Shown here piece after piece: positions 33,564 to 58,300 of a stretch of DNA of 64,000 nt. Source of the stretch: Candidatus Spongiisociaceae bacterium (lineage in GTDB: Bacteria; Actinomycetota; Acidimicrobiia; Spongiisociales; Spongiisociaceae); the NCBI GenBank assembly GCA_965262915.1, contig OZ253564.1, positions 3,776,001 through 3,840,000 on the forward strand, in the 5' to 3' direction. Position 1 is the stretch's first letter. The number at the start of each line of letters is the position of its first letter. Both the position numbers and the translations under genes were made by a program. The notes under the pieces were generated by a model that saw only the letters and a list, made by a program, of their open reading frames with translations, made no database searches and had not been told where the DNA came from.

Positions 33564-35315
33564 TGGATGGCCGTCGCCCTGTTCTCCCTCATCCCCGGTG
33601 GGTGTCGCCGCGTCTCGCAGCCGATGCAGGGCGAACTCTTTGAGCCGGTCGTCCTCACCGAAGAACTGCTCGGCGATGTACGGAAGCACCGAGTGATCCC
33701 AGATCAATTCAACCCACTCCTCGTCGAGATTCTGGTCCATGAAATAGCTCGGACCGATGGCGGCGTGCCGCCGACCCAACTTCTTGTTGGCCCGATCCAC
33801 CACCTCGGCCACCCAGAACAATTCGGGTTTGTTCTTGTTGAGCCATCGGGCCAGCAGACCCTCGATCGGCGGTTGGTCGGGAAAGAACGGAGAGAAGTGG
33901 AAACGTCGCCGGAGCGCCGAATCGACCAGGGCGATCGAGCGGTCGGCAGTGTTCATGGTGCCGATGATCCACAGGTTCTCCGGTAGCGAGAAGGCATCGT
34001 CCGAGTACTGGAGCTTGATTTTCTCCTTCCGGTACTCCAAGAGAAAGTAGAGCTCACCGAACACCTTGCCCAGATTCCCGCGGTTGATCTCGTCGATGAT
34101 CAGCACGAACGTTTCTTCGTCGGACGCTTCCTCTGCCCGGCGGGCGATCCGCTTGAGTGGACCCTCACGGAGCTCGAACCCTGCCATATTTCCCTTGAGC
34201 GAGGCGGGCCGGTACCCCTCGACGAAGTCCTCGTACGCGTAAGACGGATGGAACTGCACCAGATCGACTCGCTCCTCGTCACGCGCGATATGGGCCGCCA
34301 GCTTGCGGGCCACATAAGTCTTGCCCGTCCCCGGTGGTCCGTAGAAGATCACCTGTCGACGGTGACGCAGCAAACGGTGGATGAGATCCAGATGGCTCTT
34401 GGGGATCAGAAGATCGTCGGCCAGCCCGTGGAGTGTCGTAGGCACGCCCTCATGCTCGTCCGGCCCCTCGGTCGGTAATGGTGACGGGGTGGGAACCTGC
34501 ACCTTGGCGGGCGTGGCTGGCTCAGGTGAGCTTCTCTTCGGATGATCCCACCGTTGGCGGAGAGGATCGCGGTAAAAGCTGAACCCCCGCCCGTGATCGC
34601 CGGTTAGCGCTTCCCTTATCTGCAGTAGTCGCCGGTCTACATCATCGGATGGGTCCGATACCAGATGGACGAAGGCGCTGGCGATCCGGTCCTTGTGACT
34701 CAGGGCCATGGCCGTTTCGTAGTTGTCGGGATGGAGGAGATGCAGAAGCGCGTTGCGCTGCAGGCCGTCAGCGCCACCGGGAACGCTCTCCACGAAACGC
34801 TTGAACTCCCAAGGATCCTCCAAGAGCAGGCGTCCCTCATCGCTGTCAGGAGACTTCCAGAGGCGGCTGAACTCGATCAGGAAACGAAGCTGTTGCCAAC
34901 GATACGTGTTGAATCCGAAGCCCGCATGCCCGACGCCCTGATCGAGAGCAGCATCAAGCGTCGCGGGAATACTCACATGTTCGGGAGACCAACCGAGCAC
35001 GCTCTCGATAACGGCCACCTTTCCCTTCCTCCCGATCGGCTTGTTCTTGGCCGCCAGAAAGTGCACGAACAGCAGCTCGCCCATCAGCTGGAATACCGCC
35101 GGATCGGCGCCGGCGAACTGCCGCTCGAGCTTGGTCAGGAAGTCATCTCTACCCTCGTCCGCCCCCATCACGAAGCGGCGATGCAGTTCGTCGAGCCATC
35201 GCCGCGACCAGATCTCCTTGCCGGATGTGAAGAGCGAATCGTCGTCCAGAAGAGCGGCGTCGGCCCATATTCGGGCCACCTCGTACAACTCGGGACACTC
35301 CTGTCGGCGGGCCAT
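33552..35315 (-). CDS. mcrB: McrB family AAA+ GTPase
   Basis: GPPGTGKT, VQFHPSYAYEDFVEG, IIDEINRGN, MNTADRS, LRRRF, IGPSYF. Confidence 0.93.
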   Translation of the reverse strand: MARRQECPELYEVARIWADAALLDDDSLFTSGKEIWSRRWLDELHRRFVMGADEGRDDFLTKLERQFAGADPAVFQLMGELLFVHFLAAKNKPIGRKGKVAVIESVLGWSPEHVSIPATLDAALDQGVGHAGFGFNTYRWQQLRFLIEFSRLWKSPDSDEGRLLLEDPWEFKRFVESVPGGADGLQRNALLHLLHPDNYETAMALSHKDRIASAFVHLVSDPSDDVDRRLLQIREALTGDHGRGFSFYRDPLRQRWDHPKRSSPEPATPAKVQVPTPSPLPTEGPDEHEGVPTTLHGLADDLLIPKSHLDLIHRLLRHRRQVIFYGPPGTGKTYVARKLAAHIARDEERVDLVQFHPSYAYEDFVEGYRPASLKGNMAGFELREGPLKRIARRAEEASDEETFVLIIDEINRGNLGKVFGELYFLLEYRKEKIKLQYSDDAFSLPENLWIIGTMNTADRSIALVDSALRRRFHFSPFFPDQPPIEGLLARWLNKNKPELFWVAEVVDRANKKLGRRHAAIGPSYFMDQNLDEEWVELIWDHSVLPYIAEQFFGEDDRLKEFALHRLRDAATPTGDEGEQGDGHPEGA

Positions 35316-35398: not shown

Positions 35399-36682
35399 TC
35401 ATGGTCCTAGGCAAGCCAGTGGAACGACCGCCACCCCGTCAGATCGTTCATAGGAGTATCTTCCGCCGGTGATCACCACCAGCCGGGCGAGGCCAGCGGC
35501 CCGTTCTCTGGCAACGCGGCCTCTGAGTTCCAGCAAGCCTCGTGCCGCCTTGTCGATAGCAGAGGCGCCGCCGAGCTTCACTTCTGCTGCGATCCATCGA
35601 CCGTCGCCGGTCTCGATCACTGCGTCGGCCTCGAGTCCGTAGGTGTCCCGGTAGTGGTATACGGAGGCGTCGCTCGCCTGGGAGTAGATACGCAGATCAC
35701 GGATGGCCATAGATTCGAACAGGAAGCCGAATGCGTTCAGGTCATCAAGATACCGCTGCGGACCTGCACCGAGCACGGCGGCAGCCAGGGATGGATCGAC
35801 GAAGTGACGCTTCGGGGACCGGATAAGGCTGGCCCTTGATCTGATGTGCGTGTTCCACGCAGGCAGATCCTCCACCACGAACAGGCGGCTCAGCACATCC
35901 AAGTACGTCTTTACGGTGGTGCGGTTCAAGGGGACTTCACCGCCTGTCTCGGCTGCCAGCTTCTGGAAACCAGCGGTCGTGGAGACGTTGCGAGCCAGCG
36001 ACCGTATCAGTCGCATCACGCCTCTGGGACTGCGGCGGATCCCATCGACCGCCGAGACATCCACCCGGCAGATGTCGTCCAGGTAGTCGCGGGTGAAGCG
36101 ACGAGCCTCCATCATCGGGGTGTCGATGAGCTGGGGCCAGCCACCGCGACAGGCGGCCCCGACAAGTCCGGGAACGTCCAGGCCCGCTTCGGCGGCCGGG
36201 AGTTCCCGTCCTTCGAGCACCGCCCCGAGCGAGGCCGCTCCGGTGGAGAGTCCGGTTTCCCGGAGCGACATGGGACGCATACGCACGCGACTGATCCGGC
36301 CTGCACCCGAATGGCGGGTCAACTCGTCGGCGGGAACGGCGGACCCGGTGAGTATGAACTGGCCCGGACGACCGCGCCGGTCGCAGGCGGCCCTCACGAG
36401 GTGCCACAACTCGGGGACACGCTGCCATTCGTCCAACAGACGGGGAGTGGGACCGTCGAGCAGGAGCCCCGGAGCATGCGGAGCAATCTCCCAGAGGTCC
36501 GGACGCTCTTCCAGAAATATCTCGCTGCGGGCGAAGTGTTGCCCGGTCCACGTCTTGCCACAACCTTTGGGGCCTTCTATCAGTACGGCTCGCGCCGAGC
36601 GCAACGCCACCGGAACTTCCGTGTCCACGACCCGATCCAGGTAGATGCGCTCGGGATCCGCATGGCCTGGAGTTGTGAGCAT
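35399..36682 (-). CDS. AAA_14 ATPase with DUF4143 C-terminal domain
   Basis: GPKGCGKT, LDEWQ, FILTGS, HSGAGR, GGWP, KRHFVDPSL, YRD..GLEADAV..AEVK. Confidence 0.9.
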   Translation of the reverse strand: MLTTPGHADPERIYLDRVVDTEVPVALRSARAVLIEGPKGCGKTWTGQHFARSEIFLEERPDLWEIAPHAPGLLLDGPTPRLLDEWQRVPELWHLVRAACDRRGRPGQFILTGSAVPADELTRHSGAGRISRVRMRPMSLRETGLSTGAASLGAVLEGRELPAAEAGLDVPGLVGAACRGGWPQLIDTPMMEARRFTRDYLDDICRVDVSAVDGIRRSPRGVMRLIRSLARNVSTTAGFQKLAAETGGEVPLNRTTVKTYLDVLSRLFVVEDLPAWNTHIRSRASLIRSPKRHFVDPSLAAAVLGAGPQRYLDDLNAFGFLFESMAIRDLRIYSQASDASVYHYRDTYGLEADAVIETGDGRWIAAEVKLGGASAIDKAARGLLELRGRVARERAAGLARLVVITGGRYSYERSDGVAVVPLACLGP

Positions 36683-37403: not shown

Positions 37404-37793
37404 CTACATGGGAGCGATAGCCGGGATCCCCAGGGCTCGGGCAGCGTCTCCCAAACGCCGGTCGTAGGTCACCACCCCTTTGAGTTCATCACCTAACTCC
37501 AATGCCGCGGCGAGGTGCAGGGCATCCAGGCTGCGGAGCGCAACCGGTTCGAGCATGGCCGCCCGCTCGCACACGGAGGTTGAGAGTTTCAGCAGGATCA
37601 GGGAGTCTAGGAGCCCCCTCGCCTCAGTCATCCGCTCCGGATCAACTCTTGTCGTGACCCTCAACAGCTCCGTCCTCAGGAGATCACTCGACAACACCTG
37701 AGCGTCCACCGCCTCCAACCAACTGCGCATCCCGGTCGAACCTCGCTCCACGAAGATCAACTTCACCGCTGCGGACGTGTCCAGATAGAACAA
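37404..37793 (-). CDS. vapC: VapC family PIN-domain toxin
   Basis: YLDTSA, RTE, LRSLDALHLA, TYDRRL. Confidence 0.9.
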   Translation of the reverse strand: MFYLDTSAAVKLIFVERGSTGMRSWLEAVDAQVLSSDLLRTELLRVTTRVDPERMTEARGLLDSLILLKLSTSVCERAAMLEPVALRSLDALHLAAALELGDELKGVVTYDRRLGDAARALGIPAIAPM

Positions 37794-38218: not shown

Positions 38219-39745
38219 TCAGGCGAGTGGGCCCGTCACAACCTCGACCGCAGCCACCAGGTCCTCGTCTGTGAGAAGTTCCTCGGCTGCTCCGAGTTCG
38301 GGCGACAGGACACGATCCGGACCAGGGCCGGACACCCGGCTTCGCAGCAGCCGGACAGCCGCTGCGGTGCCGGCGGCCGGTTGCAGTGGTCCGCGCAGGT
38401 CGATGGCGCGCGCGGCTGTGACCCATTCGATGGCGAGGATCCGGCGCACGTTATCGATCACTTGACGGAGTTTGCGGGCTGCGCTCCAACCCATCGAGAC
38501 GTGATCTTCTTGCATCGCCGAGGTTGGATAGGAGTCGACCGAGGCGGGGGCGGCCAGCCGCCGGTTCTCGGCACACATGGCGGCCGCGGTGTACTGGCCG
38601 ATCATCAGACCGCTGTCGACACCGGGGTCGTCTGCCAGGAAGGGCGGGAGACCGTGGGAGCGGTTGTGATCCAGTAGGCGGTCGAGCCGTCTCTCCGCTA
38701 TGGCCCCCACCTCGGCCAGGGCGATCGCCAGGTAGTCGGCAGCCAGGGCAACCGGCGCTCCGTGGAAATTGCCACAGGACTCGACCCGGCCATCGGGTAG
38801 GACCATCGGATTGTCGATCGCCGACGCCAGTTCCCGGTCGGTCACCTCCGCTACGAAAGCAAGGGTATCGCGCGCCGCGCCGTGGACCTGAGGCGTGCAT
38901 CGAACCGAATAGGCGTCCTGCACGCGCAGATCTCCGCTGCGATGGCTGGCGACTATCGGGGATCCCGCGAGAACGGCCCGCAGGTTCGCGGCGCTGGCGG
39001 CCTGGCCTGGATGGGGCCGCAACGCCTGGAGATCGGCGGCATACGCACGGTCGGTGGCCAACAGTCCCTCGACGGTGAGGGCCGCGACGATGTCCGCGAC
39101 AGTGAGCAGGTAGGCAGCATCATGAACCGCCAGGCAGAGCATTCCAAGGATGCCGTCGGTGCCATTCGTGAGCGCCAAGCCTTCCTTCTCGGCCAGCACC
39201 ACCGGTTCGATCCCCTCGGAGGCTAGGACCGAGGCGGCGTCCCGCAATCCGCTGTCGGTCATCACCTCACCTTCACCAATGAGCGCGAGCCCGACGTGGG
39301 CCAGCGGCGCCAGGTCCCCGCTCGCGCCCAGCGACCCGTGCTCGGGGACTCTGGGAACGACACCGGCGTTCAGCAGGCGCAGCAGTCCCTCCGCAACCAC
39401 CGGTCGGGCGCCCGACGCTCCTAGCGCCAGGGTCCTCGCCCGCAGGAACATCATGGCCCGGACCACTTCGGCCTCCACGGCCCGCCCCATCCCCGCCGCG
39501 TGGGAGCGTATGAGCGAACGCTGGAGGGCGATCCTTCTTTGTGTGGGGATCGTCGTGGTCGCCAGAGCACCGAAGCCCGTGCTGACACCGTAGGTGGGTT
39601 CGCCCTCCGCGAGGTGTTCGACGATGGCCCGAGCAGTTCCCATGCGGACGCGGGCCGCTTCGGTCAGGCGAACGTGCTCGCCCAGACGAGCCACCGCGAC
39701 AACATCTGCGACGGTTACTCCCGGACCATCGAGGTACACGGTCAC
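38219..39745 (-). CDS. hutH: Histidine ammonia-lyase
   Basis: YGVSTGFG, LIRSHAAG, MIO-forming GASGDLAPL, KEGLALTNG, QDAYSVRC, GNFHG, QEDHVSMG. Confidence 0.95.
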   Translation of the reverse strand: MTVYLDGPGVTVADVVAVARLGEHVRLTEAARVRMGTARAIVEHLAEGEPTYGVSTGFGALATTTIPTQRRIALQRSLIRSHAAGMGRAVEAEVVRAMMFLRARTLALGASGARPVVAEGLLRLLNAGVVPRVPEHGSLGASGDLAPLAHVGLALIGEGEVMTDSGLRDAASVLASEGIEPVVLAEKEGLALTNGTDGILGMLCLAVHDAAYLLTVADIVAALTVEGLLATDRAYAADLQALRPHPGQAASAANLRAVLAGSPIVASHRSGDLRVQDAYSVRCTPQVHGAARDTLAFVAEVTDRELASAIDNPMVLPDGRVESCGNFHGAPVALAADYLAIALAEVGAIAERRLDRLLDHNRSHGLPPFLADDPGVDSGLMIGQYTAAAMCAENRRLAAPASVDSYPTSAMQEDHVSMGWSAARKLRQVIDNVRRILAIEWVTAARAIDLRGPLQPAAGTAAAVRLLRSRVSGPGPDRVLSPELGAAEELLTDEDLVAAVEVVTGPLA

Positions 39746-39756: not shown

Positions 39757-40464
39757 CTACGGCCGGAAGAGCGCCAGCGATGCGTCAACGGCCGCGTCGA
39801 CCACAGCCCTGGCGGTGCGTTCCAAGCGGTCCCCCACCATCCGGTCGGCCGGCCCCAAGACCGAGAAGGCTCCCACAACCCCCGAGGCCCCTTGGATCGG
39901 CGCCACCACCGCGGTTACGTCCGGTTCGATTGCGCCCGTGTTGAAGAACGGCGAAGGGGGGGAGCCGGATCTGACGGGGTCGCTCGTCAGAGCTTCGCCC
40001 ACGGCGGTGCCCTTGACGGGCACCGACTTGCCGACCCAACCGACGTGGCGGATGGCCCTCCGGCTCTCCACCGAGGCGATATAGACGGCCTGGCTCCCGT
40101 CCTTGACCGCCAGGTAGGCAGATTCCTCGGTGACATCGGCCAAGCGCTTCAACACCGGTCGAGCAGCTGCGTTGAGGCGGGCGTACGGACCCGACTGGAA
40201 GGCGGCCAGCGCGATCCGCACGAAGGTAGGCCCGACTGAATACCTTCCCACATCGTCCTTGACCAGGTAGCCGTGGCTCGTGAGGACCCGCAGGTGCCGC
40301 AGAGCGGTGCTGACCGGTATCCGGGTCTCGGCAGCCACACCTGTCAGGCCGACCGCCCCACCGGTCACGACCGCGTCGAGCAGGCTCAAGACCCGCTCCG
40401 CCGAGCGTGACACATGAAGCGTCGGACGGGCGTCGTTCTTTGAGGGTGCACCGGCCGCGGTCAT
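39757..40464 (-). CDS. IclR family regulator (probable hut regulator)
   Basis: HTH IPVSTALRHLRVL; TEESAYL, TAVGEAL, VVAPI; divergent from hutU. Confidence 0.85.
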   Translation of the reverse strand: MTAAGAPSKNDARPTLHVSRSAERVLSLLDAVVTGGAVGLTGVAAETRIPVSTALRHLRVLTSHGYLVKDDVGRYSVGPTFVRIALAAFQSGPYARLNAAARPVLKRLADVTEESAYLAVKDGSQAVYIASVESRRAIRHVGWVGKSVPVKGTAVGEALTSDPVRSGSPPSPFFNTGAIEPDVTAVVAPIQGASGVVGAFSVLGPADRMVGDRLERTARAVVDAAVDASLALFRP

Positions 40465-40576: not shown

Positions 40577-40606
40577 TTGACAGAATAGTCCCAACATCGG
40601 TATAAT
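40577..40606 (+). promoter_or_regulatory. Consensus sigma70/SigA promoter of the hutU operon
   Basis: TTGACA (40577-40582), 18-nt spacer, TATAAT (40601-40606). Confidence 0.8.
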
Positions 40607-40662: not shown

Positions 40663-42353
<1,691 letters not shown>

Positions 42354-42354
<1 letters not shown>

Positions 42355-43895
42355 TGGCTGCACGACGGCGGCGGGGCGGGCGCAGAGCCCGTATCGCAGA
42401 CCGCGGCCCCGCCAACCCCCAGCGCCCGTTCCGCCAGCCCCGGCTCCCTTGGCAGCCGGTTCGGGCGATCTCCGATGACCGCCTCGAGGCCATCCACGAC
42501 GCTTCTCTGAAGGTCCTGCGGGATATCGGGATGGACATGCTGCACCCGGAAGCTCGGAGACTCCTAGCCCGCGAGGGCGCCGATGTAGAACCGGACTCGG
42601 CACGGGTGCGGTTCGATCCCGAGATGGTCACCGAACTGGTCGGTTACGCACCCAGCCAGTTCACATTGCACGCCCGCAACCCCGTCCACCACATCCGGAT
42701 GGGTGGGAACTCGGTGGCGTTCGCGGCGGTAGCCAGCCCTCCCAACGTCTCGGGCCTCGGCCGTGATCGACGGACCGGCAATCGCGAGGACTTCAGGAGG
42801 CTCGTGTGCCTCAGCCAGCACCTCAATGTCGTGCATCTGCATGGCGGGTACCCGGTGGAACCCACGGACATCCATCCGTCCGTTCGCCACCTGCAGGCCA
42901 CCCTGGACCTGTTGACGCTTAGCGACAAGGCCATCCACACCTACAGCCTCGGACGGCAGCGTACGCTCGACACCATCGAGATGGCCCGCATCGCTCGCGG
43001 GATCAGCGAGGACGAACTCGACGCCCAGCCGTCCTTGTACACGATCGTCAACACCTCGTCACCTCTGCGTCTCGATGCGCCGATGATCGAGGGAATCCTC
43101 GAGATGTCGGCCCGCAACCAGCCGGTTGTCATAACCCCGTTCACGTTGGCGGGCGCGATGGCGCCGGTGACGATCGCGGGCGCTCTGGTGCAGCAGAACG
43201 CTGAGGCTCTGGCCGGTATCGCCCTCACCCAGGCGGTGCGACGCGGGGCACCCGTAGCGTACGGGGCGTTCACTTCCAACGTCGACATGCAGTCGGGGGC
43301 GCCCGCCTTCGGAACCCCCGAGTACCTGCAGGCAGCGCTTGCGGGCGGTCAACTGGCCCGGCGATACGCCCTCCCCTACCGGTCCTCCAACGCCAACGCC
43401 TCCAACGCCGTGGACCTCCAGGCCACCTACGAGAGCATGTTCTCGCTCTGGGGCGCCGTAATGGGCGGCGCCAACCTGATAATGCACGCGGCCGGGTGGC
43501 TCGAAGGCGGGCTGCGGGCATCCTTCGAGAAGATGGTGCTGGACGCCGACCTGCTGCAGATGATCTGCGCAGCCCTCGAGCCACCCGCCGTGGACGATGG
43601 TGCGCTGGCGCTCGACGCCATCGCCGACGTGGGTCCGGGCGGTCATTTCTTCGGTACCGCCCACACCCAGGCCCGCTACCGCAACGCCTTCCATACACCG
43701 CTCCTGTCCGACTGGCGGAACTTCGAGACGTGGGATGAGGCCGGACGGCCCGATCCGGCCCTGCGAACCGAGTCCCTGGCCAGGGAGTTCCTCGAAGCCT
43801 ACGAGGAGCCCCCGATGGAACCCGCCATCCGGGAGGAGCTCAACGAGTTCGTGGCCCGCCGTGTCGGCGAAGGCGGCGTAGCTACCGATTTCTGA
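42354..43895 (+). CDS. Trimethylamine methyltransferase (MttB) superfamily protein, non-pyrrolysine
   Basis: IHDASLKVLRDIG, NTSSPLRLD, TPFTLAGAMAPVT, SNVDMQSGAPAFGTPE, HAAGWLEGG, VGPGGHF; no in-frame TAG; GTG overlaps hutU stop. Confidence 0.92.
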
Positions 43896-43905: not shown

Positions 43906-44583
43906 GTGAAACCCGTCCGCTATAGCCCGGCCCGTCTTCGTATCGACGAGAACCCCACCGGCCATCCGTGCGCCGACATCCGGCACTACGAGGCCGATCT
44001 AGCACTTCTCAATCACCTGCTCCAGGAGCTGCGGGTGCTCCTACGCCAGGCTAGGGCAGGTGAAACGGTTCTCCGTCCGTACCAGACCATAAGCTGGCAC
44101 GAGGACGGACTACGACGTAGGACCGTCATGTGCGATCCGGCGGCCCTACTGAGAGGTCCGGATGTGTTGATCGTCGGATTCCTCGGGAACCGGCGGTCCA
44201 GCGACGAAGCCAACGCGATCGACGAGTTCGAGATAGACGTGATCGGCGAGTTCCGGCAGTACCCGGGAATACTCAGCTACTCCTCCACGGAACTGATCCC
44301 GAACCAATGGGCGAACCTGGTGGTCCACCAGGAGGTCGGAGACCGTGAAGACTGGCGCCACAGCGCGGTTCACATAGAAGCGGCTGAAGAACTGTCCCCC
44401 CGTGTCTATCACAGCGTCCGCATCCATAACGGCCGACTGAGCGGAGGGCCGATCAGCGACGGCAGCTTGATAGTAGAGACCACCAAGTACTGGGACTACG
44501 ACTCGGACCCGATGTGGCACGCGATCCGGACGCTCCCGGGAGGCATCACGACCGCAGACCGCCCGTGGCCGGGCCAACGATGA
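43906..44583 (+). CDS. Hypothetical protein, possible dimeric alpha/beta-barrel (ABM-like) domain
   Basis: Coupled within the operon; PGILSYSS...WANLVV...WRHSAVHIEAA pattern. Confidence 0.7.
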   Translation: MKPVRYSPARLRIDENPTGHPCADIRHYEADLALLNHLLQELRVLLRQARAGETVLRPYQTISWHEDGLRRRTVMCDPAALLRGPDVLIVGFLGNRRSSDEANAIDEFEIDVIGEFRQYPGILSYSSTELIPNQWANLVVHQEVGDREDWRHSAVHIEAAEELSPRVYHSVRIHNGRLSGGPISDGSLIVETTKYWDYDSDPMWHAIRTLPGGITTADRPWPGQR

Positions 44584-45149
44584 CGGTTCGCCGGATCCTT
44601 TCGATAGGCCACCCGGCTCTACGGGTTAGAGCTGCGGAAGTGCCCAACGATGACATTGCCACGGCTGCCATCCAGGATCTGATCGACGATCTCATCGACA
44701 CCATGCGGCACGCCAATGGCTCGGGGATCGCCGCCAACCAGATAGGCGCATCCGTCCGCATAATGATCATGGAGGTCGACAGGAACCCGCGCTACCCGTA
44801 CAAGCCACCCATCCCCCTGACGGTGGCCATCAATCCCGAGTTCGAGCCGCTCGACAACCGGACGGTGGTCATCAACGAGGGGTGCCTGTCAGTCCCGCTG
44901 CGCGGTGAACTGATGCGCTCCGTCAACCTCGGGATTCGCTATACAGACCGCTACGGGAATGGCCACGAACAGGTGTTGCGCGGTCTCACCGCCGGAACCT
45001 GGCAGCACGAGTGCGACCATCTCGACGGGGTCTTGGTGGTCGACCGGATCGACCCCCGGACGCTCACCACCTGGGAGGAGTTCGACCGGCACCATCGTGA
45101 CCCCTTCGTCGAACGCATCACCCGGTTCGTCGCCGAGGTCGGGTCGTGA
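44580..45149 (+). CDS. def: Peptide deformylase family protein
   Basis: All three PDF motifs: GSGIAANQ, EGCLS, QHECDHLDG. Confidence 0.92.
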   Translation: MTVRRILSIGHPALRVRAAEVPNDDIATAAIQDLIDDLIDTMRHANGSGIAANQIGASVRIMIMEVDRNPRYPYKPPIPLTVAINPEFEPLDNRTVVINEGCLSVPLRGELMRSVNLGIRYTDRYGNGHEQVLRGLTAGTWQHECDHLDGVLVVDRIDPRTLTTWEEFDRHHRDPFVERITRFVAEVGS

Positions 45150-46513
45150 AGACCCGGTACTGGTGCGAACTGGCCTGGCTCGGCGGCCCCAGGGCGACCC
45201 CCGGAGTCGTGATCGAGGTCGACGGCGACAGCATCATAGGGGTGGATCCAGGCCAAGCGGCCCCTCCACCCGACGCCACCCCTTTGATGGGTCTTACCCT
45301 CCCGGCGCTGGCCAACGCCCACAGCCACGCGTTTCACCGGGCTCTGCGGGGCCGCACCCACGGCGGTAGGGGTACGTTCTGGACTTGGCGTGACCTGATG
45401 TACCGGGTTGCTGGGATTCTTGACCCGGATAGTTACTACCGGCTGGCTCGGGCGACCTTCGCCGAGATGGCCTTGGCGGGAGTCGGGGTGGTCGGTGAGT
45501 TCCACTACGTCCATCATCGGCCTGCAGGGGGACCCTATGACGACCCGAACGCCATCGGGGTCAGCCTGGCAGCCGCGGCGCGGGATGCCGGAGTCCGTCT
45601 GACCCTGCTCGATGCGCTGTACCTGCACGGAGGGTTCGCCCCGGGATCGGAATCCGGGTACGCCCCGCCGACTCCCGAACAAGGCCGGTTCAGCGACGGG
45701 TCCGTGCATGCCTGGGCAGAGCGGGTGGCGAATTTGGCGGCCGGTGTTTCCGGGCCCCGCACGAAGGTGGGAGCCGCGGTTCACTCGGTACGCGCGGTCG
45801 ATCCGCCGTCGATCGAGGCCGCGGCCCTCTGGGTTAGCGAGAACAAGGTACCGCTTCACGTGCACGTCTCCGAGCAGCCTGCCGAGAACGAGGCGTGCCT
45901 GCAGGTCCACGGTCGAACCCCCACCGCCGTGTTGGCGGAGGCAGGAGCGCTCAGCCCGGACACCACGCTGGTCCACGCCACTCACCTTTCCGACCTTGAC
46001 ACCGCCACGATCGGCGAGGCGGGAGCGCACTGCTGCATCTGCCCGACCACCGAGCGCGACCTGGCCGACGGTATCGGCCCCAGCGAAGCGCTGGTGCGGG
46101 CCGGGGCGAGCCTTTGCCTGGGATCCGACTCCCACGCGGTCATCGACATCCTGGAGGAAGCTCGAGCTGTGGAGTTGGGCCAGCGGGTCCTGACGCACCG
46201 ACGGGGGATCCACTCCACCGAAACCCTCGGCTCCATCGCCACCGTCAACGGGTACAGGTCACTCGGGTGGGAAGACGGAGGCGCGATAAGGCCGGGCTGG
46301 CTCGCCGACTTCACCAGTGTCAGGCTGGACTCGGTCCGGCTGGCCGGGATCGACGCCGGCAACGCTTTCGACGCGGTGATCTTCGCCGCATCGAGCGCCG
46401 ATGCACACAACGTCGTCGTCGGGGGCCGCCCGGTCGTGGTCGATGGAACCCACGTCTCGATCGATGTTGCGGACGAACTCGACTCCGCTATCGCCAAGGT
46501 AGTGACGGCATGA
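45146..46513 (+). CDS. hutF: Formimidoylglutamate deiminase
   Basis: [59 protein letters not shown]. Confidence 0.95.
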
Positions 46514-47709
46514 CGCTGGTGATCGACAACATCGGCGAGTTGGTGACCAATGCTCCCGAACTCGGGGCCGGACCGCTGGGCATCGTCCGCGACGCGGCGA
46601 TCGTGGTAGACGGGGACACCGTGCTCTCGATCCGTCCCGCAGGCGCGTCAGCGGACGAGCGCCTCGACGCCGGGGGCAGGTGCGTCCTACCCGGGTTCGT
46701 GGACTCCCACACCCATCTGGTCTTCGCCGGTGACCGGGCGGAGGAATTCACGCGGCGCATGGCGGGCGAGAACTACGACGGGGGCGGGATCCGCGTGACG
46801 ACCGAGGCCACCCGCGCCGCAAGCCGGGATGAGTTGCGGAGGGGGCTCGACCGCAGGCTCACCGAAGTTCATCGCGCCGGCACCACCACTGTGGAGATCA
46901 AGTCCGGGTACGGGCTGTCGGTCGAGTCCGAAGCCGAGACCACCTCGCTGGCAGCGGAAGTGACCTCCGAGACCACCTTCATGGGCGCCCATGTTGTACC
47001 TCGGGAGTACTTGGGTCGGACCAACGACTACGTCGACCTGGTCTGCGGGCCGATGCTCGAAGCCGTGCGACCCCATGTGCGCTGGATCGACGTGTTCTGC
47101 GAGGAGGGCGCCTTCGACGTGGACCAATCGCGGGCGGTGCTCGAAGCCGGTCGTGCAGCAGGTCTCGGTCTGCGCCTCCACGCCAACCAACTGGGCCATG
47201 GACCCGGAGTCCGGCTCGGCGTGGAGATGGGCTGCGCATCCGTCGATCACTGTACCTACCTCTCCGATGACGACATCGAGGCGCTGGCCGGGAGCGAGAC
47301 CGTTGCCACCTTCCTCCCGGCGGCGGACTTCTCCACTCGTCAGCCGTATCCCGACGCCCGGAGGGTCATCGACGCGGGGGTTACCGTGGCGATCGCATCC
47401 AACTGCAATCCCGGGTCCAGCTACACCACTTCCATGTCGTTCTGCATCGCGCTGGCGGTACGCGACATGAACATGACCATCGACGAAGCACTGGCCGCGG
47501 CAACGACCGGCGGCGCAGCAGCTCTGAGAAGGAAGGACGTCGGGCGCCTCGTCCCCGGTGACCCGGCCCACCTCACCATCATCGACGCACCCAGCCGCCA
47601 CCACCTCGCTTACCGACCGGGCGTTCCGCTGATATGGCGGACGCTCGGCGCCGACTACCGACGACCGGCCACCGACCACCGAAACCAAGAGAGAGAGGTC
47701 ACAGCATGA
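46510..47709 (+). CDS. hutI: Imidazolonepropionase
   Basis: [46 protein letters not shown]. Confidence 0.95.
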
Positions 47710-49163
47710 ACGTCCCCAACCCGACCGGACACAACCAGTGGTATCCATTCGCCAACCGTCCTCTGCCTCCTGACGTAAACGGCGAGGCGGCCAACCCCGC
47801 GGCGATCCCGGTCTTCGACTCCGTACCCCTGCCGCCGAGCGCAAGGTTCGTCGTGGTCGGTGCCGGCATCCACGGACTGTCGAGCGCCTATCACCTGGCC
47901 ATGTATCTCGAGCGTTCGGGCAAGGGTAAGGGCAGCGACGTCGTCCTGATCGACAAGCAGGGCCCCGGCGCCGGCGCCACCGGCCTGGCCTGCGGCTGCG
48001 TCCGGAACCTCTACATGACCCCTCCGCTGCATGCCATCCTGCGCGCCAGCGTGGAAGTGTGGGAATCCGATCCCGTGAACCTCGGCTTCCAGCAGGTCGG
48101 ATATGTCTCGGTAGGCGAGGCGAACCAGGAGGAGGATTACATCAAGCTCCAAGCATCGCAGGCAGCGAGCGGGTATCCGTCGGACCTCTACACGGGCTCC
48201 GACGCTCACGCGTTCCTCAACAAGCTGTGGCCGGACTTCAAGACCGACAACTGCGATATCGTGCTCCACGAGCACCGCTCCGGCTACGCAGGCACCCACA
48301 TCGCCGTGTGGGGCCTCGACCAGAAGTGCCGGCAGTGGGGTGTGCAGCGCGTTTACGGCACCAGTGTCACCGGCTATGCACGCGATGCCTCCGGATCCGT
48401 CACCGCGGTCGAGACCGACCAAGGATCCATCTCCTGCGAGCAGGTCATCGTGGGTGCAGGGGCTTGGACGCCCGTGCACTGGGAGTGGCTCGGCGGCCCT
48501 TCGCACCTCGATGTTCTCTATCCGGATGGCCACGTCGAGGAGCAGATGGACATGTGGACCTACTGGCGCCTGCTCGAAGGTGAGGTCCTTCTGCCCGAAG
48601 GGGTGGACTTCCGCACGGCCCAACACCGGGATTCACCCGTGCTGCACGTCGAACTCATGGACACACCCGTTTATGGCGAAGACGGCGCGATGATCCTGGA
48701 CAACTTCTACGTCTACACCCGCTACGCCGCCGAACGAGTGGGAGCACCCGGACTCCAAGGCGGGACCATCCCCATCAAGATCGGCCCCCGAGCGGCCCTC
48801 GAACCCTACGGCCACCTCAACGATATGTACCAGGCTGATTCGTGGTTCGCCGACTACTACTGTGCCGCTCTCGGGATGCTGTTCAAGCGGCTCGAGAACC
48901 TGCGGCCCTACTTCAAGGAGCGTCGCAACGGGGGTATCGGCGCGTTCACGCCCGACAACGTACCGGTATTCGATCACCTGACCGACAACGCTTGGGTGAT
49001 CGCCGACTCCAACCACGGCTTCAAGATGATCGGTGTGGGCAAGCTTACCGCTCAGATGCTCGTGCATGGTGACAAGCCTGACGAGTTGAAGCCCTTCACC
49101 CTCGGTCGGTACAGCACGGGCGGCACCTTCGGAGACCGGAACTCGAACAGTCCGTGGGTCTAG
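47706..49163 (+). CDS. FAD-dependent oxidoreductase, sarcosine oxidase beta / N-methylglutamate dehydrogenase subunit A-like
   Basis: [60 protein letters not shown]-terminal SPW; MgdA resemblance is from memory. Confidence 0.8.
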
Positions 49164-49574: not shown

Positions 49575-50324
49575 TTGAGCACCCCGGCAGAAGCGCCTCT
49601 GAGAGCTGCAACCTATCTGGGCGACAACACACTGGCCATCATGAGCGACCTGGTGGAGCACCTGTCGGAGGCGACAGGAATCGAGGTGGCTGTCGACTGC
49701 ACGGCGGGGAGGAGCACGGCCGAAGCGGGCCGCCAAGCTCCCGACCTTGATCTTGTGTGGATGTGCGGGCACCTGACCGCGTCGCTCATCTCCACGGGCC
49801 GGATGTCCCACAGGATCGTGGCCGCACCGGTCTTCGCCGGGTCCGGGGGACCGGTCTACCACTCGGTGATCGTCAGCCGAGAAGACGGCCCCTCGTCGCT
49901 GCCTGCCGCGCTGGATACCAGGCTGGCAGTTAACGAAATCGAGTCCTGGTCCGGTTTTCTCGGATTGAAGGCCCATGTCGAGCGGTCCTTCCCCGGTGCC
50001 TGGTTCATCGATCAGGCAGTGACCGGTTCGCATCGGGCCTCGATCGAAGCTCTCGCTAACGGGACCTGCGATGTCGCCTCCATCGACGTAACAGTCTGGG
50101 AGCACGCAGTGGCCGAGCAACCCGTCGAGGTTGCCGACCTTCGCGTGATCGACCGCACGGTCGACTGGCCGGCGCCGCCATTCAGCTTGGGGACGCATCT
50201 CGACTTGGGACGACGGAAAAGCCTCAGGGCGGCCCTGCTCGCAATCGGACCATCGGACATAGCCTCCCTGGACGGCGTCGTTCCCGTCGATTCCGGTGTC
50301 TACCAGGAGGTGATGCGTGTCTGA
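49575..50324 (+). CDS. PhnD/SsuA-like periplasmic-binding-fold protein (orphan)
   Basis: DLVWMCG, PVYHSVIV, ESWSGF, TGSHRASI, DVASID, WPAPPF; no signal peptide. Confidence 0.75.
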   Translation: MSTPAEAPLRAATYLGDNTLAIMSDLVEHLSEATGIEVAVDCTAGRSTAEAGRQAPDLDLVWMCGHLTASLISTGRMSHRIVAAPVFAGSGGPVYHSVIVSREDGPSSLPAALDTRLAVNEIESWSGFLGLKAHVERSFPGAWFIDQAVTGSHRASIEALANGTCDVASIDVTVWEHAVAEQPVEVADLRVIDRTVDWPAPPFSLGTHLDLGRRKSLRAALLAIGPSDIASLDGVVPVDSGVYQEVMRV

Positions 50325-50372: not shown

Positions 50373-50609
50373 ATGCCGGTCCAGATCACCATACGAGGCG
50401 TCCCAGAGGAAGTCCGCGACGAGTTGGCCGCCAGAGCCGCTCTCAACCGTCAGTCGATGCAGGAGTTCCTGCGCACCGAACTCGAGCGCATTGCGTCGCG
50501 ACCGTCCCTCGCCACGCTGCTCTCCGAGGTCAGACGCCGCAAGGAGGCCGCCGGGACCATCGTTCCGAGTTCGCTGATCGTCCATGAGCGAGACGCGGAC
50601 CGGAGGTGA
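50373..50609 (+). CDS. FitA-like ribbon-helix-helix antitoxin
   Basis: ITIRGVPEEVRDELAARAA..QSMQEFLR; GTGA overlap with the PIN toxin. Confidence 0.88.
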   Translation: MPVQITIRGVPEEVRDELAARAALNRQSMQEFLRTELERIASRPSLATLLSEVRRRKEAAGTIVPSSLIVHERDADRR

Positions 50610-51013
50610 AGGCGGTTGTCGACGCTTCGGTGCTGGTCGCGGCGCTGGTCGATACCGGCAACGACGGCCCCTGGGCGGAGAACGTGATTTCGGAGGGTCC
50701 GCTGGCCACACCGGAACTGGCTCTGGTCGAAGCGACCAACATCCTGCGGCGATTGGAGCAGACCGGTCTGATCTCGCAGCTGGAAGCCACGGCCTCCCAC
50801 CGGGACCTGCTGCGGCTGGACGTGGAGTTCTACCCGTTCGCGCCGGTGGCCGACAGGGTATGGGAGTTGCGCCACAACCTCACCAGCTATGACGCCTGGT
50901 ACGTGGCTCTGGCCGAAGCGCTCGATTTCCCACTCGTGACCCTAGACCGGAAACTCGGCCGAGCCCCAGGACCGAGATGCGATGTGATCGTGCCGCCGCG
51001 CAGGAAGGCATGA
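50606..51013 (+). CDS. vapC: VapC family PIN-domain toxin
   Basis: VVDASV, LVEATN, SYDAWYVALAE, VTLDRKL. Confidence 0.92.
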   Translation: MKAVVDASVLVAALVDTGNDGPWAENVISEGPLATPELALVEATNILRRLEQTGLISQLEATASHRDLLRLDVEFYPFAPVADRVWELRHNLTSYDAWYVALAEALDFPLVTLDRKLGRAPGPRCDVIVPPRRKA

Positions 51014-53485: not shown

Positions 53486-55333
53486 TTATTTCCACAGTCT
53501 TGATCTCAGTCCGGAGGCTCTCTGGACCGAGCGTTCCACCGCAAGGCGGATAACCGGCTCGTCCCCGACCAGGGTCACCTTGCCGGATGCCCTGGTCACC
53601 GCGGTGTAGAGGAGTTCCCTGGTGAGAAGGCGGGACCTGTCGGAGGGCAGGGAGACGACTGCCTCGCCGAACTGGGAACCTTGACTCTTGTGGATGGTCA
53701 AGCCATGGACCGTGCTGTGCTCGCCCAGGTAGCCGGGCGGGAAGGAGCGTATGCCGCCCCGGTCGAACACCACCCGTATACCTTCGCCGGTCCGGACCAC
53801 TACACCGATGTCCCCGTTGTAGAGACCGAGGTTGTAGTCGTTAGTGGTGATCATCAACGGGCGTCCTGGGTACCACTCACCGCGATATCGCAGGCCGGGG
53901 AACCTCTCGTCGAGTATGTCCTCGATGTCGCGCCGCCACTGCTCCACGCTGCCGGGGCCATCGCGATGGGCGCACAGCACCGCCATCTCGCTGAGGCGTG
54001 CCAGCGCCTCCTGTTCATTGCCCGGCACGGACGCCGCCTCCACCAACCGGGCCCGATGCTCTACCACCCGTTCTCTCAGCCTCCGGAAGGGGGCCCCGGT
54101 CCGGTCCTTCACCCAGTGAAGTCCATCCACCTCTCGGCCGAGCAATTCCATCGCCCGGTCGGGGTCGCCGTCCCGAACCGCGTCGGCGAAGTCGGCGATC
54201 GGGCCTTGCTCCTCGAAGCGGTGTACCCGCTCCAGCACCACCACCCGGTCGGCCATCGAGAGAGCGCCAGGGACCGGTCCAGGCTGCTGGGGGTCCGGCA
54301 ACCCGGCCGCGGGACCCACTATGTCGGCGAGAACCGTCCCTGCCTCTATCGACTCCAACTGGTAGGGGTCGCCTACGAGAACCAGTGTGGCGTCGGCCCG
54401 TACCGCGACGATGAGCTTGGCGGCGAGCGGTAGCGAGACCATCGACATCTCGTCCACGACGACGAGGTCATGGGGAAGCCGGTTCCGTTCGTGATGGGCG
54501 AACCGGCCCCGGCCCCACGCCCATCCCAGCAGCCGGTGGATGGTGCCGGTCTGCAGTTTCTCCAACCGCTCCCGGACCATCGGGTGCCCGGCACTAGCTG
54601 CCAGATCGTCGATCACCTCCCTCAGCCGGGCAGCCGCCTTCCCGGTGGGAGCGCACAGCGCGACGCGGGGGAAACCTCCTGGGGTGTGCGCCAGAGCGGC
54701 CAGCATCCTCGCCACCGTGTACGTCTTGCCGGTACCCGGACCGCCGGCAATAACGGTCAACTTCCCGGTCAGGGCATTGACCGCCGCGGCGTGCTGGAGG
54801 TTCGGCCTGGTGCCCGAGACGGGGGGAAGCAACTGGTTCAGAACCGTCTGGAACCCCGGCGTGAGGGCGGTCCGGGGCCCATCGGTGCGCGCCCCGATCA
54901 GGCCCACCACCCGTTCTTCGTACCGGAAGTAACGCTCCAGGTAGAGGCGATCGTTATCCAGCACGAGGGGTTCCTCTCCCCCGCCGTCACCGACCATCGA
55001 ACTGCCCGACACCGCCGACATCCACTCGTCCGGATCCGGCCATGGAAGCGCTTCGACCACCTCCGGAGGTTGGCCCTCGATCACCATCGCTTCCCGCTGG
55101 CTGACGAGGCCGATGCAGACGTGCCCGAAGCGGGTGCCCCGCACTGCCAGGGCGGCTGCCAGCATCACCTTCGAGTCGGACTCGCCCCATAGCCGGGCGA
55201 TCACCGTCGCGGCGTGGACGTCGAGGGGCGACAGGGCACCTCCGTCGTTGAAGGACGCCAGCAAGCCGGATGCACCGACCACCGCTCGCGGCCCGGCGAT
55301 GGCGGCTTCGAGCCGCTCGACGGCCACCATCAT
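53486..55333 (-). CDS. recD: Exodeoxyribonuclease V subunit alpha
   Basis: GGPGTGKT, APTGKAAARL, TIHRLLG, VDEMSM, GDPYQL, TIHKSQGSQF, ELLYTAVTRA. Confidence 0.95.
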   Translation of the reverse strand: MMVAVERLEAAIAGPRAVVGASGLLASFNDGGALSPLDVHAATVIARLWGESDSKVMLAAALAVRGTRFGHVCIGLVSQREAMVIEGQPPEVVEALPWPDPDEWMSAVSGSSMVGDGGGEEPLVLDNDRLYLERYFRYEERVVGLIGARTDGPRTALTPGFQTVLNQLLPPVSGTRPNLQHAAAVNALTGKLTVIAGGPGTGKTYTVARMLAALAHTPGGFPRVALCAPTGKAAARLREVIDDLAASAGHPMVRERLEKLQTGTIHRLLGWAWGRGRFAHHERNRLPHDLVVVDEMSMVSLPLAAKLIVAVRADATLVLVGDPYQLESIEAGTVLADIVGPAAGLPDPQQPGPVPGALSMADRVVVLERVHRFEEQGPIADFADAVRDGDPDRAMELLGREVDGLHWVKDRTGAPFRRLRERVVEHRARLVEAASVPGNEQEALARLSEMAVLCAHRDGPGSVEQWRRDIEDILDERFPGLRYRGEWYPGRPLMITTNDYNLGLYNGDIGVVVRTGEGIRVVFDRGGIRSFPPGYLGEHSTVHGLTIHKSQGSQFGEAVVSLPSDRSRLLTRELLYTAVTRASGKVTLVGDEPVIRLAVERSVQRASGLRSRLWK

Positions 55334-58300
55334 CGACGCCCTGCGAATAGCTCGCTCAGGGCCACAACCATCTGCGGCGGCGGGGACCAGGGCGCCACCC
55401 CGCAGCGCTCCCCGCCGGTGACCGGGGTCCCGGGACCGATCATGCCCCTGACGAACAGGTACATGGACCCGCCGAGATGGACGGACGGGTCGTAGCCCGG
55501 GAGGCGCCACTCGAGGTACCGGTGGAGGGCCACCTGGTACAGCAGGGCCTGGAGCACGTAGTTGCCGTGATGCATGGCGGTGACCAGCGGGACCGGTCCG
55601 TAGTCGGTCGCCGCCGGTAGCTCGCCTCCGGCGGGAAGCGTGTTGGACTTGAAGTCCATGACCGTGTAGCGATCGCCGCGGGCGGCCGGCAGGACGGTGA
55701 TGAGGTCGATACCCCCGGTCAGGAAGCCGCGGAACCGATGAGGTTCCAGGTCGCGAAGCCGCGAGAAGTAGCCCCGGTGGGGATCGTCGTCGTCGAGACG
55801 CTTGAGCACCACCGCAGCGACATCGCGCAGCGAGATCGTCGATGCCGAAGTACGGAGCGGCAGTTCGAAGTCCAACTCCTTGAGGGTCCGCCTCGGGTCG
55901 AGATCGCGCAGGGTGGGAGCGTCGTCTCGAGGCCCGAGCGGTGTCTGCATCGCCGCCGCTATTCCACTTACGAAGGCATCGCTCTCGAAGTCCCAGGATG
56001 CGTGGCGGGTGGCGCGGGCCAGCTCGGATCCGATCGCAGCAGGGAGGTCGGGAGCGTCGAAGGGCACGTACCGGAGGACCTCGTGTACCAGCGACCCGAA
56101 CCGGGCCCCGCGTGGAAGCTCGGCCATCGGCAACCCGCCGCCGACCCCGGCCGGCGGGTCGTCGTACTCGACCTCGTCGACCCGGTCCGGTTCGTCGGTG
56201 GTGTCGGCCTCCCCGCCCAGGGGATGGTCGGGCGACAGTGACGAGAAGGAGACCCGCCGCCAGAAGTAGTCGAGCGGCCGATCGAAGCTGGCCCGTTCGA
56301 GCCGGCTCCGCGCCTTCCCCGCCCCTGGGTACTCGACCGATGTTTGCGTTTCGCTGAGGATGGTCTGGCTGATCGCTCCCCCGGAGGCTTCGATGAGCCC
56401 CGCGATGGTCCGGTCGGGGTCACGCCCGCGGCTCAGGATCTGGTGGAGCTTGGTTCTGGCCGAGTTGGCGGTGTTCTCGATCCACCACACCACCAGGCGA
56501 TGCTTCGCTCTGGTGAGCGCCACGTACAGCAACCGGCCCTCCTCGGCAGTCTCCTCATCCATCGCGGCCTGCTGGTGGGATTCGAAACCGGGCGACGCGG
56601 GACCGCCCACATCGATTAGACGCCGACGGGGTGCCCCCTCCGGAGCGGGCTCCGGATCGTGAAAGATGGGGATCCGGGGCGTGATCCGGGGGATATCCCA
56701 CAAGAACGGCGCCATCACCACCGGGTACTCGAGGCCCTTGGCGGCGTGCACGGTCAGGACCTGCACCGCGGCCGCGTCCGTATCCAGGCGACGCTGGCGG
56801 GACTCGGCATCCTCGACGTTCGCCTCGGCGTTGCGGGCAGCTTCGTCCATGGCAACTTCGATCCACACCACCAGCGACCCGATCCGACCCCTCCGCCAGG
56901 CGGCATGCATCTCTTCGGCGATGTGGTTCAGGTCGGTCAGTTCCCTCTCACCATCGGATCGGGCGAGCACCCGGGCCGTGAGACCGGTGGTCCGGTCGAC
57001 GTCGGCGAACATCGCGGGTACTCCGTGGTCGTGCAACAGCCCCTGCCACCGCAGGAAGCGTTGCTGGAGATCGAGGAGGGGGTCGTCGCTTAGACCGGCC
57101 ACCTCGCGAAGGGGCTTCCCCACGAGTGGAGTGGTGGCCGCCAAGCGCAGGTAGCCGGCTCGGCTCGGTCGTTCCACCGCGAGGAGGAACCGGCGCCAGT
57201 GCTCGGCAGCCGGGGTGGCGAACACGCTCCCGGTCCGGGCCACCACCGACGGTACGCCCGCGGCTGTGAGTGCGTCCCGTATGATCCCGACCTGCCGGCC
57301 GGTGCGGCACAGCACCGCGATGTCCCCCGGTCCGAGTGGGCGATCCTCGCCGTCGCTGCCCGTCAAGGTCACCCCGTCATCGAGAAGCCGGACCACTTCG
57401 GCGGCCACATCCGCGGCGACCGCCCCCCGCGCCTCCCCGACGTAGAAGAACGGTCTGTATTGCTGGCGGGGCAGCGGGAAGTCGCCCGAGAAGCGGCGTA
57501 TCTCCAGGGCGCTCCCCGCGCCGCTTATCCGGGCTGTCCGGTTCCGGTCGGCCGGCAGCACGGGGCGGTATCCGATACGGGGGTCGCCGAAGGTGGCGCC
57601 GGCCAGCAACGCGTCGAGGGCGACGATCAGCGGTCCGTCGCTGCGCCAGTTGGTAGCGAGGGTGCGGTGAGTGGTGGGGTCTTCCACGGCGGAGAGGTAG
57701 GACTCGATATCGGCACCCCGGAAGGCGTAGATCGACTGCTTGGGATCGCCGATCACGACCAGCCGGGACTCGTCGAACACCGACCTGAGAATCTGCCATT
57801 GGATGGGGTCGGTGTCCTGTGCCTCGTCGACCAGCGCGATGGAGTAGCGCCTCCTCAGCAGGTCACGGGCGCCGGCGCCGATCCGCGCCTCGTTCAGCGC
57901 GTCGCGGGCTTCCACGAGGGTGTCATCGAAGGTCACCATGCCTTCCGCCCACAGCCGCTGAGACAGCACCGATTTCACTTCCCGGGCCATCTCCGCCCGA
58001 ACTCTCACCATCCCCTCCACAGAGGCGGGTTCCGGAACGGTCCGAGCATCCGGGATCGTGACGACGACCTTGCCGATCTCGGCCAGGTGGTCTTGGGGAA
58101 CCTGCTGGACCTCGTCCGCCGGCTGCGGAACGGCGAAGCGACCCACCACCAGGTCACTGGCGGCGCGCCGCAGGAGCAGTTCGTCTATCTCGCGGGGCTC
58201 CATGTCGCCGGACAGCCGGGATCGGAATCCGAGCTTCTGCAGCAACCGGAGAGCGAAGCCATGGATGGTGAAGATCTGGGCGCGGTCGAAGTGAGTCAGT

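Follow-up and report, generated by a model that had tools for sequence, protein, structure and literature searches.

A peptide deformylase paralogue as the probable N-formylglutamate deformylase of HutF-type histidine catabolism in Acidimicrobiia

The branch of histidine catabolism that proceeds through the formimidoylglutamate deiminase HutF requires an N-formylglutamate deformylase, and many HutF-bearing bacteria are devoid of HutG, the enzyme of the FGase family that makes this step in Pseudomonas-type pathways. On the basis of genomic context, a protein of the M20 family (the "alternative form" of SEED) was earlier proposed for this step as an "alternative N-formylglutamate deformylase", and a 2011 study reports no deformylase activity for the Streptomyces avermitilis protein (PMC3223725). 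Here we describe PDF2, a gene at positions 44580..45149 (+ strand) of a stretch of 64,000 nucleotides, hereafter the window, from a Candidatus Spongiisociaceae bacterium of the class Acidimicrobiia (contig OZ253564.1 of assembly GCA_965262915.1, positions 3,776,001 to 3,840,000). The product of 189 amino acids has the fold of peptide deformylases (PDFs; PF01327; EC 3.5.1.88) and, as judged from its sequence and genomic setting, is probably the N-formylglutamate deformylase of a HutF-type pathway, HutG-like in its role and a PDF in its fold.

In the proposed mechanism PDF2 would be a peptide deformylase paralogue recruited into small-molecule catabolism; it would be transcribed in one unit with hutU, hutF and hutI and coupled to them in translation, and would fill the role of HutG. 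The product of HutF, N-formyl-L-glutamate, would be hydrolysed by PDF2 to L-glutamate and formate with the use of the unchanged metal centre of PDFs (Cys102, His143 and His147, with Gln54 and Glu144), and the residues Ala/Ser48, Gly139, Thr140, Tyr74 and Lys75 may reshape the methionine pocket for glutamate. The chemistry fits this assignment, since a metal-dependent N-formyl amide hydrolase is placed after the enzyme that makes N-formylglutamate. A role in the hut pathway coupled to HutF is moreover argued for by four independent lines of comparison, namely the linkage across rearranged gene orders, the co-occurrence in the absence of HutG, the gene fusions and the change at an S1' position, all detailed below. 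No publication that proposed a PDF-type enzyme for the N-formylglutamate step or for the hut pathway was found in a literature search that left supplements aside.

The linkage of PDF2 to hutF was assessed among the closest relatives, for which 80 loci were kept of 457 relatives found by PDF2 similarity in a scan with one genome per species, and in an even sample of 301 Acidimicrobiia genomes (the class sample), where hutF was called by TIGR02022 with E at most 1e-60. Beside PDF2, hutF was present in 79 of the 80 loci, hutU in 79, hutI in 78 and hutH in 71, and the distance between the end of PDF2 and the start of the hutF match was at most 40 nucleotides in 73 of 79 cases. It should be noted that these loci are not independent, as they belong to the closest relatives and display mostly one gene order. 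In the class sample 32 of the 33 genomes with PDF2 also had hutF, and in 31 of the 33 both were found within ~3.3 kb on the same contig. This neighbourhood occurs in at least five gene orders: hutU-PDF2-hutF-hutI; hutH-hutF-hutI-hutU-PDF2; hutU-hutF-PDF2-hutI; hutU-hutF-(hutI-like)-PDF2-hutH; and an isolated hutF-PDF2 pair with hutU elsewhere in the genome (5/5). Furthermore, screening of 401 genomes sampled across the phylum Actinomycetota yielded five further PDF2-type genes outside the class (170-227 bits), four of which were part of hutH-hutU-(x)-PDF2-hutF-hutI; the five genomes were without a PF05013 match.

Altogether, hutF was detected in 42 of the 301 class genomes, 32 of them carrying PDF2, and the HutG equivalog model TIGR02017 was above its cut-off in 0/301 (best 46.4 bits vs 278.75). 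Canonical HutG is thus not found in the class sample and, by these profile searches, PDF2 is the gene that tracks hutF. As regards a mutual exclusion of def and hutG in hut operons, suggested for checking from the sequence alone, a strict exclusion cannot be demonstrated in the class, because HutG is found nowhere and 10 of the 42 hutF genomes have neither enzyme. Genes of the PF05013 family were present in 22 of the 301 genomes, 13 of them in genomes without hutF and seven in PDF2 genomes. The seven in PDF2 genomes were set aside as candidates for a hidden HutG: they lie neither on nor near the PDF2 contig, the five tested do not exceed 46 bits on TIGR02017, and 13 of the 22 hits in the class occur without hutF. 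Three genomes of the class sample (G275, G212 and G254) are unpublished; all are PDF2-negative and hutF-negative and affect only the denominator and one PF05013 hit (G254).

The genome to which the window belongs (5.06 Mb in one contig, 96% complete) has two def homologues. The housekeeping def (164 amino acids), followed by fmt and an rsmB-like gene, is situated 2 Mb from PDF2, which lies between the family-less gene X225 and hutF and has no association with fmt or other translation genes. The sequence-only reading of the locus had named a hutG elsewhere in the genome, or PDF2 as the only def copy, as counter-evidence, and neither applies: PDF2 is not the sole def copy, and PF05013 (FGase/HutG) had zero matches in the hut locus or in the whole genome. 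The only arginase-family gene, which adjoins gpsA and an aldo-keto reductase gene, was rejected as a formimidoylglutamase (182.1 bits vs 229.15) and passed the cut-off for agmatinase (182.6 vs 174.3). The M20 hydantoinase/allantoate-amidohydrolase model reached only ~34 bits in the genome, and there is no M20 gene in the hut operon of the window.

PDF2 matched PF01327 with 137.4 bits (gathering cut-off 22.8) over residues 4-160 and passed the NCBIfam subfamily model NF001159 (131.7 vs 125), and it did not reach the equivalog model TIGR00079 (99.4 vs 103.95). The catalytic and metal motifs, reported as complete by the sequence-only reading, are indeed intact (G47SGIAANQ54, E100GCLS104 and H143ECDH147), with all catalytic and metal residues invariant across 41 diverse PDF2 orthologues. 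Equally invariant in these 41 sequences are Q32, D36, D37, R71-Y72-P73-Y74-K75-P76, R108-G109, R124, G135 and T164-W165. The marks of the clade, as they read in the protein of the window, are NPRYPYKP, GSGIAANQ and TAGTWQHECDH.

The second residue of motif 1, Ser48 in the window, is Ala in 93% of 57 PDF2 sequences and Val, Ile or Leu in the housekeeping copies, the latter compared as 17 labelled rows, two of which are actually PDF2 copies. The side chain of the corresponding residue, Ile42 of AtPDF1B and Ile44 of EcPDF, is among those that give the hydrophobic S1' pocket its shape (PMC3101196). The large hydrophobic residue expected at this position of peptide deformylases is therefore absent from PDF2. 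Two further residues, Gly139 (84% of the 57 sequences) and Thr140 (100%), are located on the helix before His143 and may be the counterparts of Ile128 and Cys129 of the E. coli enzyme. Relative to the housekeeping rows PDF2 has an 11-residue loop and a C-terminal extension of 25 residues, the latter forming two helices in the AlphaFold2 model (predicted local distance difference test score, pLDDT, of 95.7). Only Tyr74-Lys75 is the clade-specific part of the loop, given that N-x-R-Y-P and Arg108-Gly109 are present in PDFs of Leptospira, Burkholderia and Xanthomonas as well. Among the 54 representatives with both the loop and the helix regions visible, RYPYKP and "AGT" before QHExDH were found together in 34, neither in 16 and one only in four (three with RYPYKP, one with AGT). 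From these substitutions we infer that the pocket may be widened and made polar or cationic for the side chain of glutamate.

Several observations indicate that PDF2 forms a discrete group. At least 120 database clusters have at least 67% identity to PDF2; nearly all are of 189-190 amino acids and, where named, are called "peptide deformylase" of Acidimicrobiia. The PDF2 scores in the 301 genomes were bimodal, with 33 full-length matches of at least 182 bits (49-100% identity), two of ~100 bits and the rest at or below 78 bits, which represent the housekeeping copy. A quick maximum-likelihood phylogeny (IQ-TREE) was calculated from 29 of the 57 dereplicated PDF2 sequences (every second one), 54 of 150 representatives (those of 160-215 amino acids in which both motifs were present) and residues 1-200 of a PDF2-HutF fusion protein. 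In it, a single group of 45-46 rows unites the PDF2 loci with the representatives that bear the signature and with the fusion protein, with a value of 86-88, below 95, in the Shimodaira-Hasegawa-like approximate likelihood ratio test (SH-aLRT); the housekeeping Defs of the class formed a separate clade (14 rows, SH-aLRT 99). The ~40%-identical PDFs encoded by G180, G240 and G651 served as a negative control: they adjoin thiolase and SDR genes and do not bear the clade signature, and their genomes are without hutF.

The search for fusions was conducted among representatives of 1.84 billion proteins. The protein P0178 (659 amino acids) comprises a PDF2 domain (residues 1-179) followed by a complete HutF (NF006681, 377.4 bits vs 362), and its PDF2 part bears NPRYPYKP, GAGIAAPQ and AAGTLQHE. 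The full-length variants in its cluster number four and occur on 1+13+2+1 = 17 contigs, which were drawn from ENA, JGI/IMG and Logan, and for this reason the fusion is not an assembly accident. In a metagenome scan the fusion at locus L156 (2320-5998) was one intron-free open frame on a 91-kb contig with 49% GC, adjoined by a gene of the Oscp1 family, a family of eukaryotic type; this arrangement suggests that the fused gene has been transferred into a protist. At L157, on a contig with 74% GC, the PDF part continues into the HutF part in one frame, and farther into HutF there is an apparent frameshift with a stop after it. A natural in-frame fusion of PDF2 with HutF was found, in sum, in two other lineages. 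In the other 78 loci of the scan hutF was unfused with no PDF2 nearby. Three further apparent long "fusions", P0134, P0143 and P0128, contain Arg/Ala-rich stretches read in the wrong frame and were discarded as products of frameshifted assembly.

The partners of hutF were also recorded in the 75 of these 78 metagenomic loci that have >55% GC, covering 106 open reading frames within 400 nucleotides of hutF. Peptidase_M20 was located directly beside hutF in 44 of these 75 loci (L159-L233), immediately upstream on the same strand, and PF05013 and PF01327 were found beside hutF in 0/75. With FGase as the classical neighbour, M20 in the metagenomic loci and PDF2 here, hutF habitually has one amidohydrolase-type partner, which supports the existence of a partner "slot" next to this gene. 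The tightness of the M20-hutF pairing suggests that the M20 question deserves a renewed test.

A number of observations weigh against the assignment of PDF2 as an N-formylglutamate deformylase. Free N-formyl amino acids are poor substrates of PDFs. Arg71, Tyr72 and Arg108 are common to PDF2 and ordinary Leptospira-type PDFs, and the closest solved relatives of PDF2 (41% identity) are genuine peptide deformylases; with every catalytic residue kept, an activity of PDF2 on N-formylmethionine (fMet) peptides is therefore conceivable. The reported inactivity of the M20 protein, proposed from the same slot for the same step, is a caution for any context-based prediction. The genome also harbours unlinked M20 paralogues, the best with 36% identity to hutF-linked M20 proteins, and the window contains a PF04199 formamidase-like gene at 13582-14412. 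Unlinked genes of the PF05013 family occur in 7 of the 33 PDF2 genomes, five of them tested and not exceeding 46 bits on the HutG equivalog. In G094 (L095, 5680-9311) the operon reads hutH-hutU-PDF2-hutI, and hutF was not found in this 96%-complete genome of 160 contigs (best match 113 bits), the contig ending 4.7 kb downstream. In G508 the signature-bearing PDF2 lies away from hut genes. Finally, both PDF2 and the HutG equivalog are missing from 10 of the 42 class genomes with hutF, so another solution for the step exists. The ten genomes are G033, G082, G142, G186, G214, G222, G262, G288, G047 and G295 (L115-L124); only two have a PF05013 gene, and among the neighbours of their hutF genes no obvious deformylase candidate was seen. 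A further deformylase may thus operate in them. These exceptions do not contradict the assignment of PDF2; they indicate that the step has other solutions and that the lack of HutG alone is a weak argument.

It should also be mentioned that the synteny SURF1-YbaK-like-[PDF2]-hutF-methyltransferase was encountered once with PDF2 and once without it, at L098 and L115, and that in L118 two family-less open reading frames of 210 and 199 amino acids directly follow hutF.

The hut region of the window was delineated by matches of its genes to Pfam and NCBIfam profiles, and all positions are given in the numbering of the window. Divergent from the hutU-hutF-hutI operon, on the - strand, are hutH (38219..39745; histidine ammonia-lyase of 508 amino acids; TIGR01225, 653.6 bits vs cut-off 539; PF00221) and a gene for an IclR-type regulator of 235 amino acids (39757..40464; PF09339 and PF01614), which adjoins hutH in 68 of the 80 related loci. 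On the + strand a promoter-like site TTGACA-18-TATAAT (40577..40606; sigma-70-like, with 12/12 consensus bases) is positioned 57 nucleotides 5' of the start of hutU, and a consensus scan gave no terminator-like site on this strand between 40663 and 49163. The operon itself, all on the + strand, starts with hutU (40663..42354; urocanate hydratase of 563 amino acids; TIGR01228, 898.7 bits vs 375), followed by a gene for a non-pyrrolysine methyltransferase of the MttB family (42354..43895; PF06253, 636 bits; below the cut-off of TIGR02369, 306 vs 525). X225 (43906..44583; 225 amino acids, without a Pfam or NCBIfam match) precedes PDF2, and hutF (45146..46513; 455 amino acids; NF006681, 587.4 bits vs 362; TIGR02022, 454.1 vs 413), hutI (46510..47709; imidazolonepropionase; TIGR01224, 349.5 bits vs 298) and a gene for a FAD-dependent oxidoreductase of the DAO family with ~485 amino acids (47706..49163; PF01266, 108 bits) come after it. 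A gene for a PhnD-like substrate-binding protein of the ATP-binding cassette type (49575..50324, + strand; PF12974, 92 bits) starts 412 nucleotides after the oxidoreductase gene, and its membership in the operon is uncertain.

The genes of the operon are tightly packed. The TAG of hutU and the GTG of the MttB-family gene have one base in common (42354), and a gap of 10 nucleotides separates the latter gene from X225, the TGA of which overlaps the ATG of PDF2 (ATGA at 44580); the RNA fold at this junction was not unusual (z 0.30). The overlap of PDF2 with hutF, already pointed out in the sequence-only reading, was confirmed, with the TGA of PDF2 (45147-45149) overlapping the GTG of hutF at 45146 (GTGA). 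ATGA overlaps are present at both the hutF/hutI and the hutI/oxidoreductase junctions.

As for the surroundings, the hut region is flanked by a McrBC-type restriction pair (McrC-like, 31605-32882; McrB-like AAA-ATPase, 33552-35315) and an ATPase gene that has DUF4143-like features (35399-36682). Also in the flanks, at 37404-37793, 50606-51013 and 53486-62030, are two genes for PIN-domain (VapC-like) proteins and a helicase-nuclease set of the RecBCD type. Farther upstream, positions 12588-14412 are occupied by genes for a carbon-nitrogen hydrolase and a PF04199 "putative cyclase" (kynurenine-formamidase-like), beside PTE-family and cupin genes; this amide-hydrolysis cluster, 30 kb away, is unrelated to the hut operon. 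Three genes for large subunits of molybdopterin enzymes (xanthine-dehydrogenase family), accompanied by genes for 2Fe-2S and FAD subunits, were found at 14596-22904.

New in this window is the insertion of MttB and X225, along with the flavoprotein. The two genes stand between hutU and PDF2 in 12 of the 80 related loci, always together, and are absent from the other 68; the PhnD-like gene was present in the same 12 loci. The insertion is peculiar to one sub-clade and was noted in the window and at L006-L016, L066 and L125. The closest solved relatives of the MttB-family protein are 4yyc (353 bits) and the glycine-betaine methyltransferase MtgB (2qne/9yce, 300 bits), and no gene for a corrinoid protein was seen in the window. 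For X225 neither Pfam nor NCBIfam gave a family, and the Atlas returned only unnamed clusters. The DAO-family oxidoreductase, distantly related to dimethylglycine dehydrogenase/oxidase and sarcosine oxidase, follows hutI in 52 of the 80 loci. Furthermore, in a PDF2-less genome (G288; L122, 1764-8129) a homologue of X225, a dimethylglycine-oxidase-like protein of 820 amino acids (DAO-FAO_M-GCV_T), an MttB-family gene and hutF were found in a row, which links MttB and X225 to hutF in a second arrangement. We infer, speculatively, that MttB, X225, the flavoprotein and the PhnD-like protein could constitute an N-demethylation module that feeds histidine catabolism, possibly from hercynine or N-methylhistidines. 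The broader proposal is rather doubtful. In it PDF2 would found a clade of N-formyl-amino-acid deformylases, derived from peptide deformylase, that supplies the last, so far missing enzyme to the HutF route in Acidimicrobiia and other lineages; in this sponge-associated sub-clade the operon, extended by a betaine-type MttB methyltransferase, X225 and an N-methyl-amino-acid-oxidase-like flavoprotein, would lead all the way from a methylated histidine, e.g. the betaine hercynine, to glutamate.

Other genes were encountered next to PDF2 in related loci. A PhyH-family Fe/2-oxoglutarate dioxygenase gene (~270 amino acids) is situated between hutU and PDF2 in L062 (7195-8004), an uncultured Acidimicrobiales metagenome-assembled genome, and in L083 (7183-8004), labelled Ilumatobacteraceae. 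In L102 (G194, 6044-9004) an EgtD-like histidine-specific S-adenosylmethionine methyltransferase gene (PF10017, 343 bits) is directly upstream of an isolated hutF-PDF2 pair.

PDF2 might act in the hut pathway on another substrate, namely directly on N-formimino-L-glutamate or on a formylated intermediate derived, for instance, from a methylated histidine that the MttB-family and flavoprotein genes of the operon would handle, which we consider unlikely. The operon of G094, with PDF2 and without a detected hutF, would be compatible with such a substrate, and so would the acquisition of MttB, X225 and the DAO-family oxidase by the sub-clade of the window, as well as the position of the EgtD-like histidine methyltransferase in L102. 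Being absent from 68 of the 80 loci, MttB and X225 cannot, however, define the general role of PDF2; hutF accompanies PDF2 in all but one of the 33 sampled genomes with it, and the fusion of PDF2 with HutF in two lineages fits consecutive steps of one pathway.

That PDF2 is a plain second peptide deformylase, its position in the hut operon being inherited baggage or serving protein maturation during growth on histidine, appears quite unlikely to us. The retention of all catalytic motifs speaks for it, as do the NF001159 score, the database names and the nature of the closest solved relatives, which are real PDFs, among them the second copies ("class I type b") that Pseudomonas and Acinetobacter possess. 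Yet PDF2 stays linked to hutF through at least five gene orders and in more than one class, there would be no reason for an enzyme associated with the ribosome to be fused with HutF, and throughout the clade a residue that shapes the methionine pocket has been exchanged. Moreover, the clade appears together with hutF (32/33) although a housekeeping def is nearly universal, with a PDF match in 293 of the 301 class genomes, and PDF2 misses the TIGR00079 equivalog cut-off. It is highly improbable that PDF2 is catalytically idle and a mere structural or regulatory partner of HutF, as translational coupling and fusion might allow, because the invariance of its metal ligands and catalytic residues in the 41 diverse orthologues points to selection on catalysis.

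The proposal of the sequence-only reading, i.e. that a deformylase was recruited for the metabolism of N-formylglutamate, accordingly gains from linkage, co-occurrence, fusion and the pocket residue, and as to the substrate it stays a prediction. Should the assignment of PDF2 as an N-formylglutamate deformylase be true, it would represent the first metabolic, non-translational role of the peptide-deformylase fold and a natural example of a methionine-specific pocket remodelled to take a free acidic amino acid. The blanket annotation "peptide deformylase" would then be corrected for hundreds of genes, and a missing reaction would be filled in for genome-scale models of Acidimicrobiia, abundant symbionts of sponges among them.

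In comparison with described systems, PDF2 has the same family and motifs as the housekeeping Def of its own genome, which differs from it in its length of 164 amino acids, in the sequences GVGLAAPQ and LGRVLQHE and in having neither the RYPYKP loop nor the C-terminal extension. The best structural match of the PDF2 model in Foldseek was the Leptospira PDF 1sv2_B (E 5e-21; root mean square deviation, rmsd, of 1.0 Å over 171 columns). This enzyme of Leptospira interrogans, LiPDF (PDB 1SV2, 1Y6H and 1SZZ), agrees with PDF2 in fold (TM 0.87 by query, rmsd 1.0 Å, 41% identity) and may be grouped with Burkholderia 5KOB and the Pseudomonas and Acinetobacter "class I type b" enzymes (6JF*) as type-1 PDFs with an enlarged CD loop, to which PDF2 is likened. 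PDFs of the LiPDF type and PDF2 are alike in the three motifs, in the N-x-R-Y-P loop insertion and in Arg-Gly after motif 2. After RYP, in contrast, PDF2 has Tyr-Lys-Pro and LiPDF has Gly-Thr-Pro, and PDF2 shows Ala/Ser where motif 1 of LiPDF has Val, and Gly-Thr in place of Ile-Val before QHE. Unlike LiPDF, it also lacks one residue behind the proline of motif 2 and has a conserved Thr-Trp and two extra C-terminal helices, and, unlike PDFs of this type, it is linked to hutF and not to translation genes. The M20 "alternative" candidate occupies the same kind of slot adjacent to hutF with an unrelated fold. HutG (PF05013, TIGR02017; EC 3.5.1.68) of the five-step Pseudomonas-type Hut pathway has no sequence or fold relationship to PDF2, which matches PDF models only, but the two share the proposed reaction, the place after HutF and the association with hutF.

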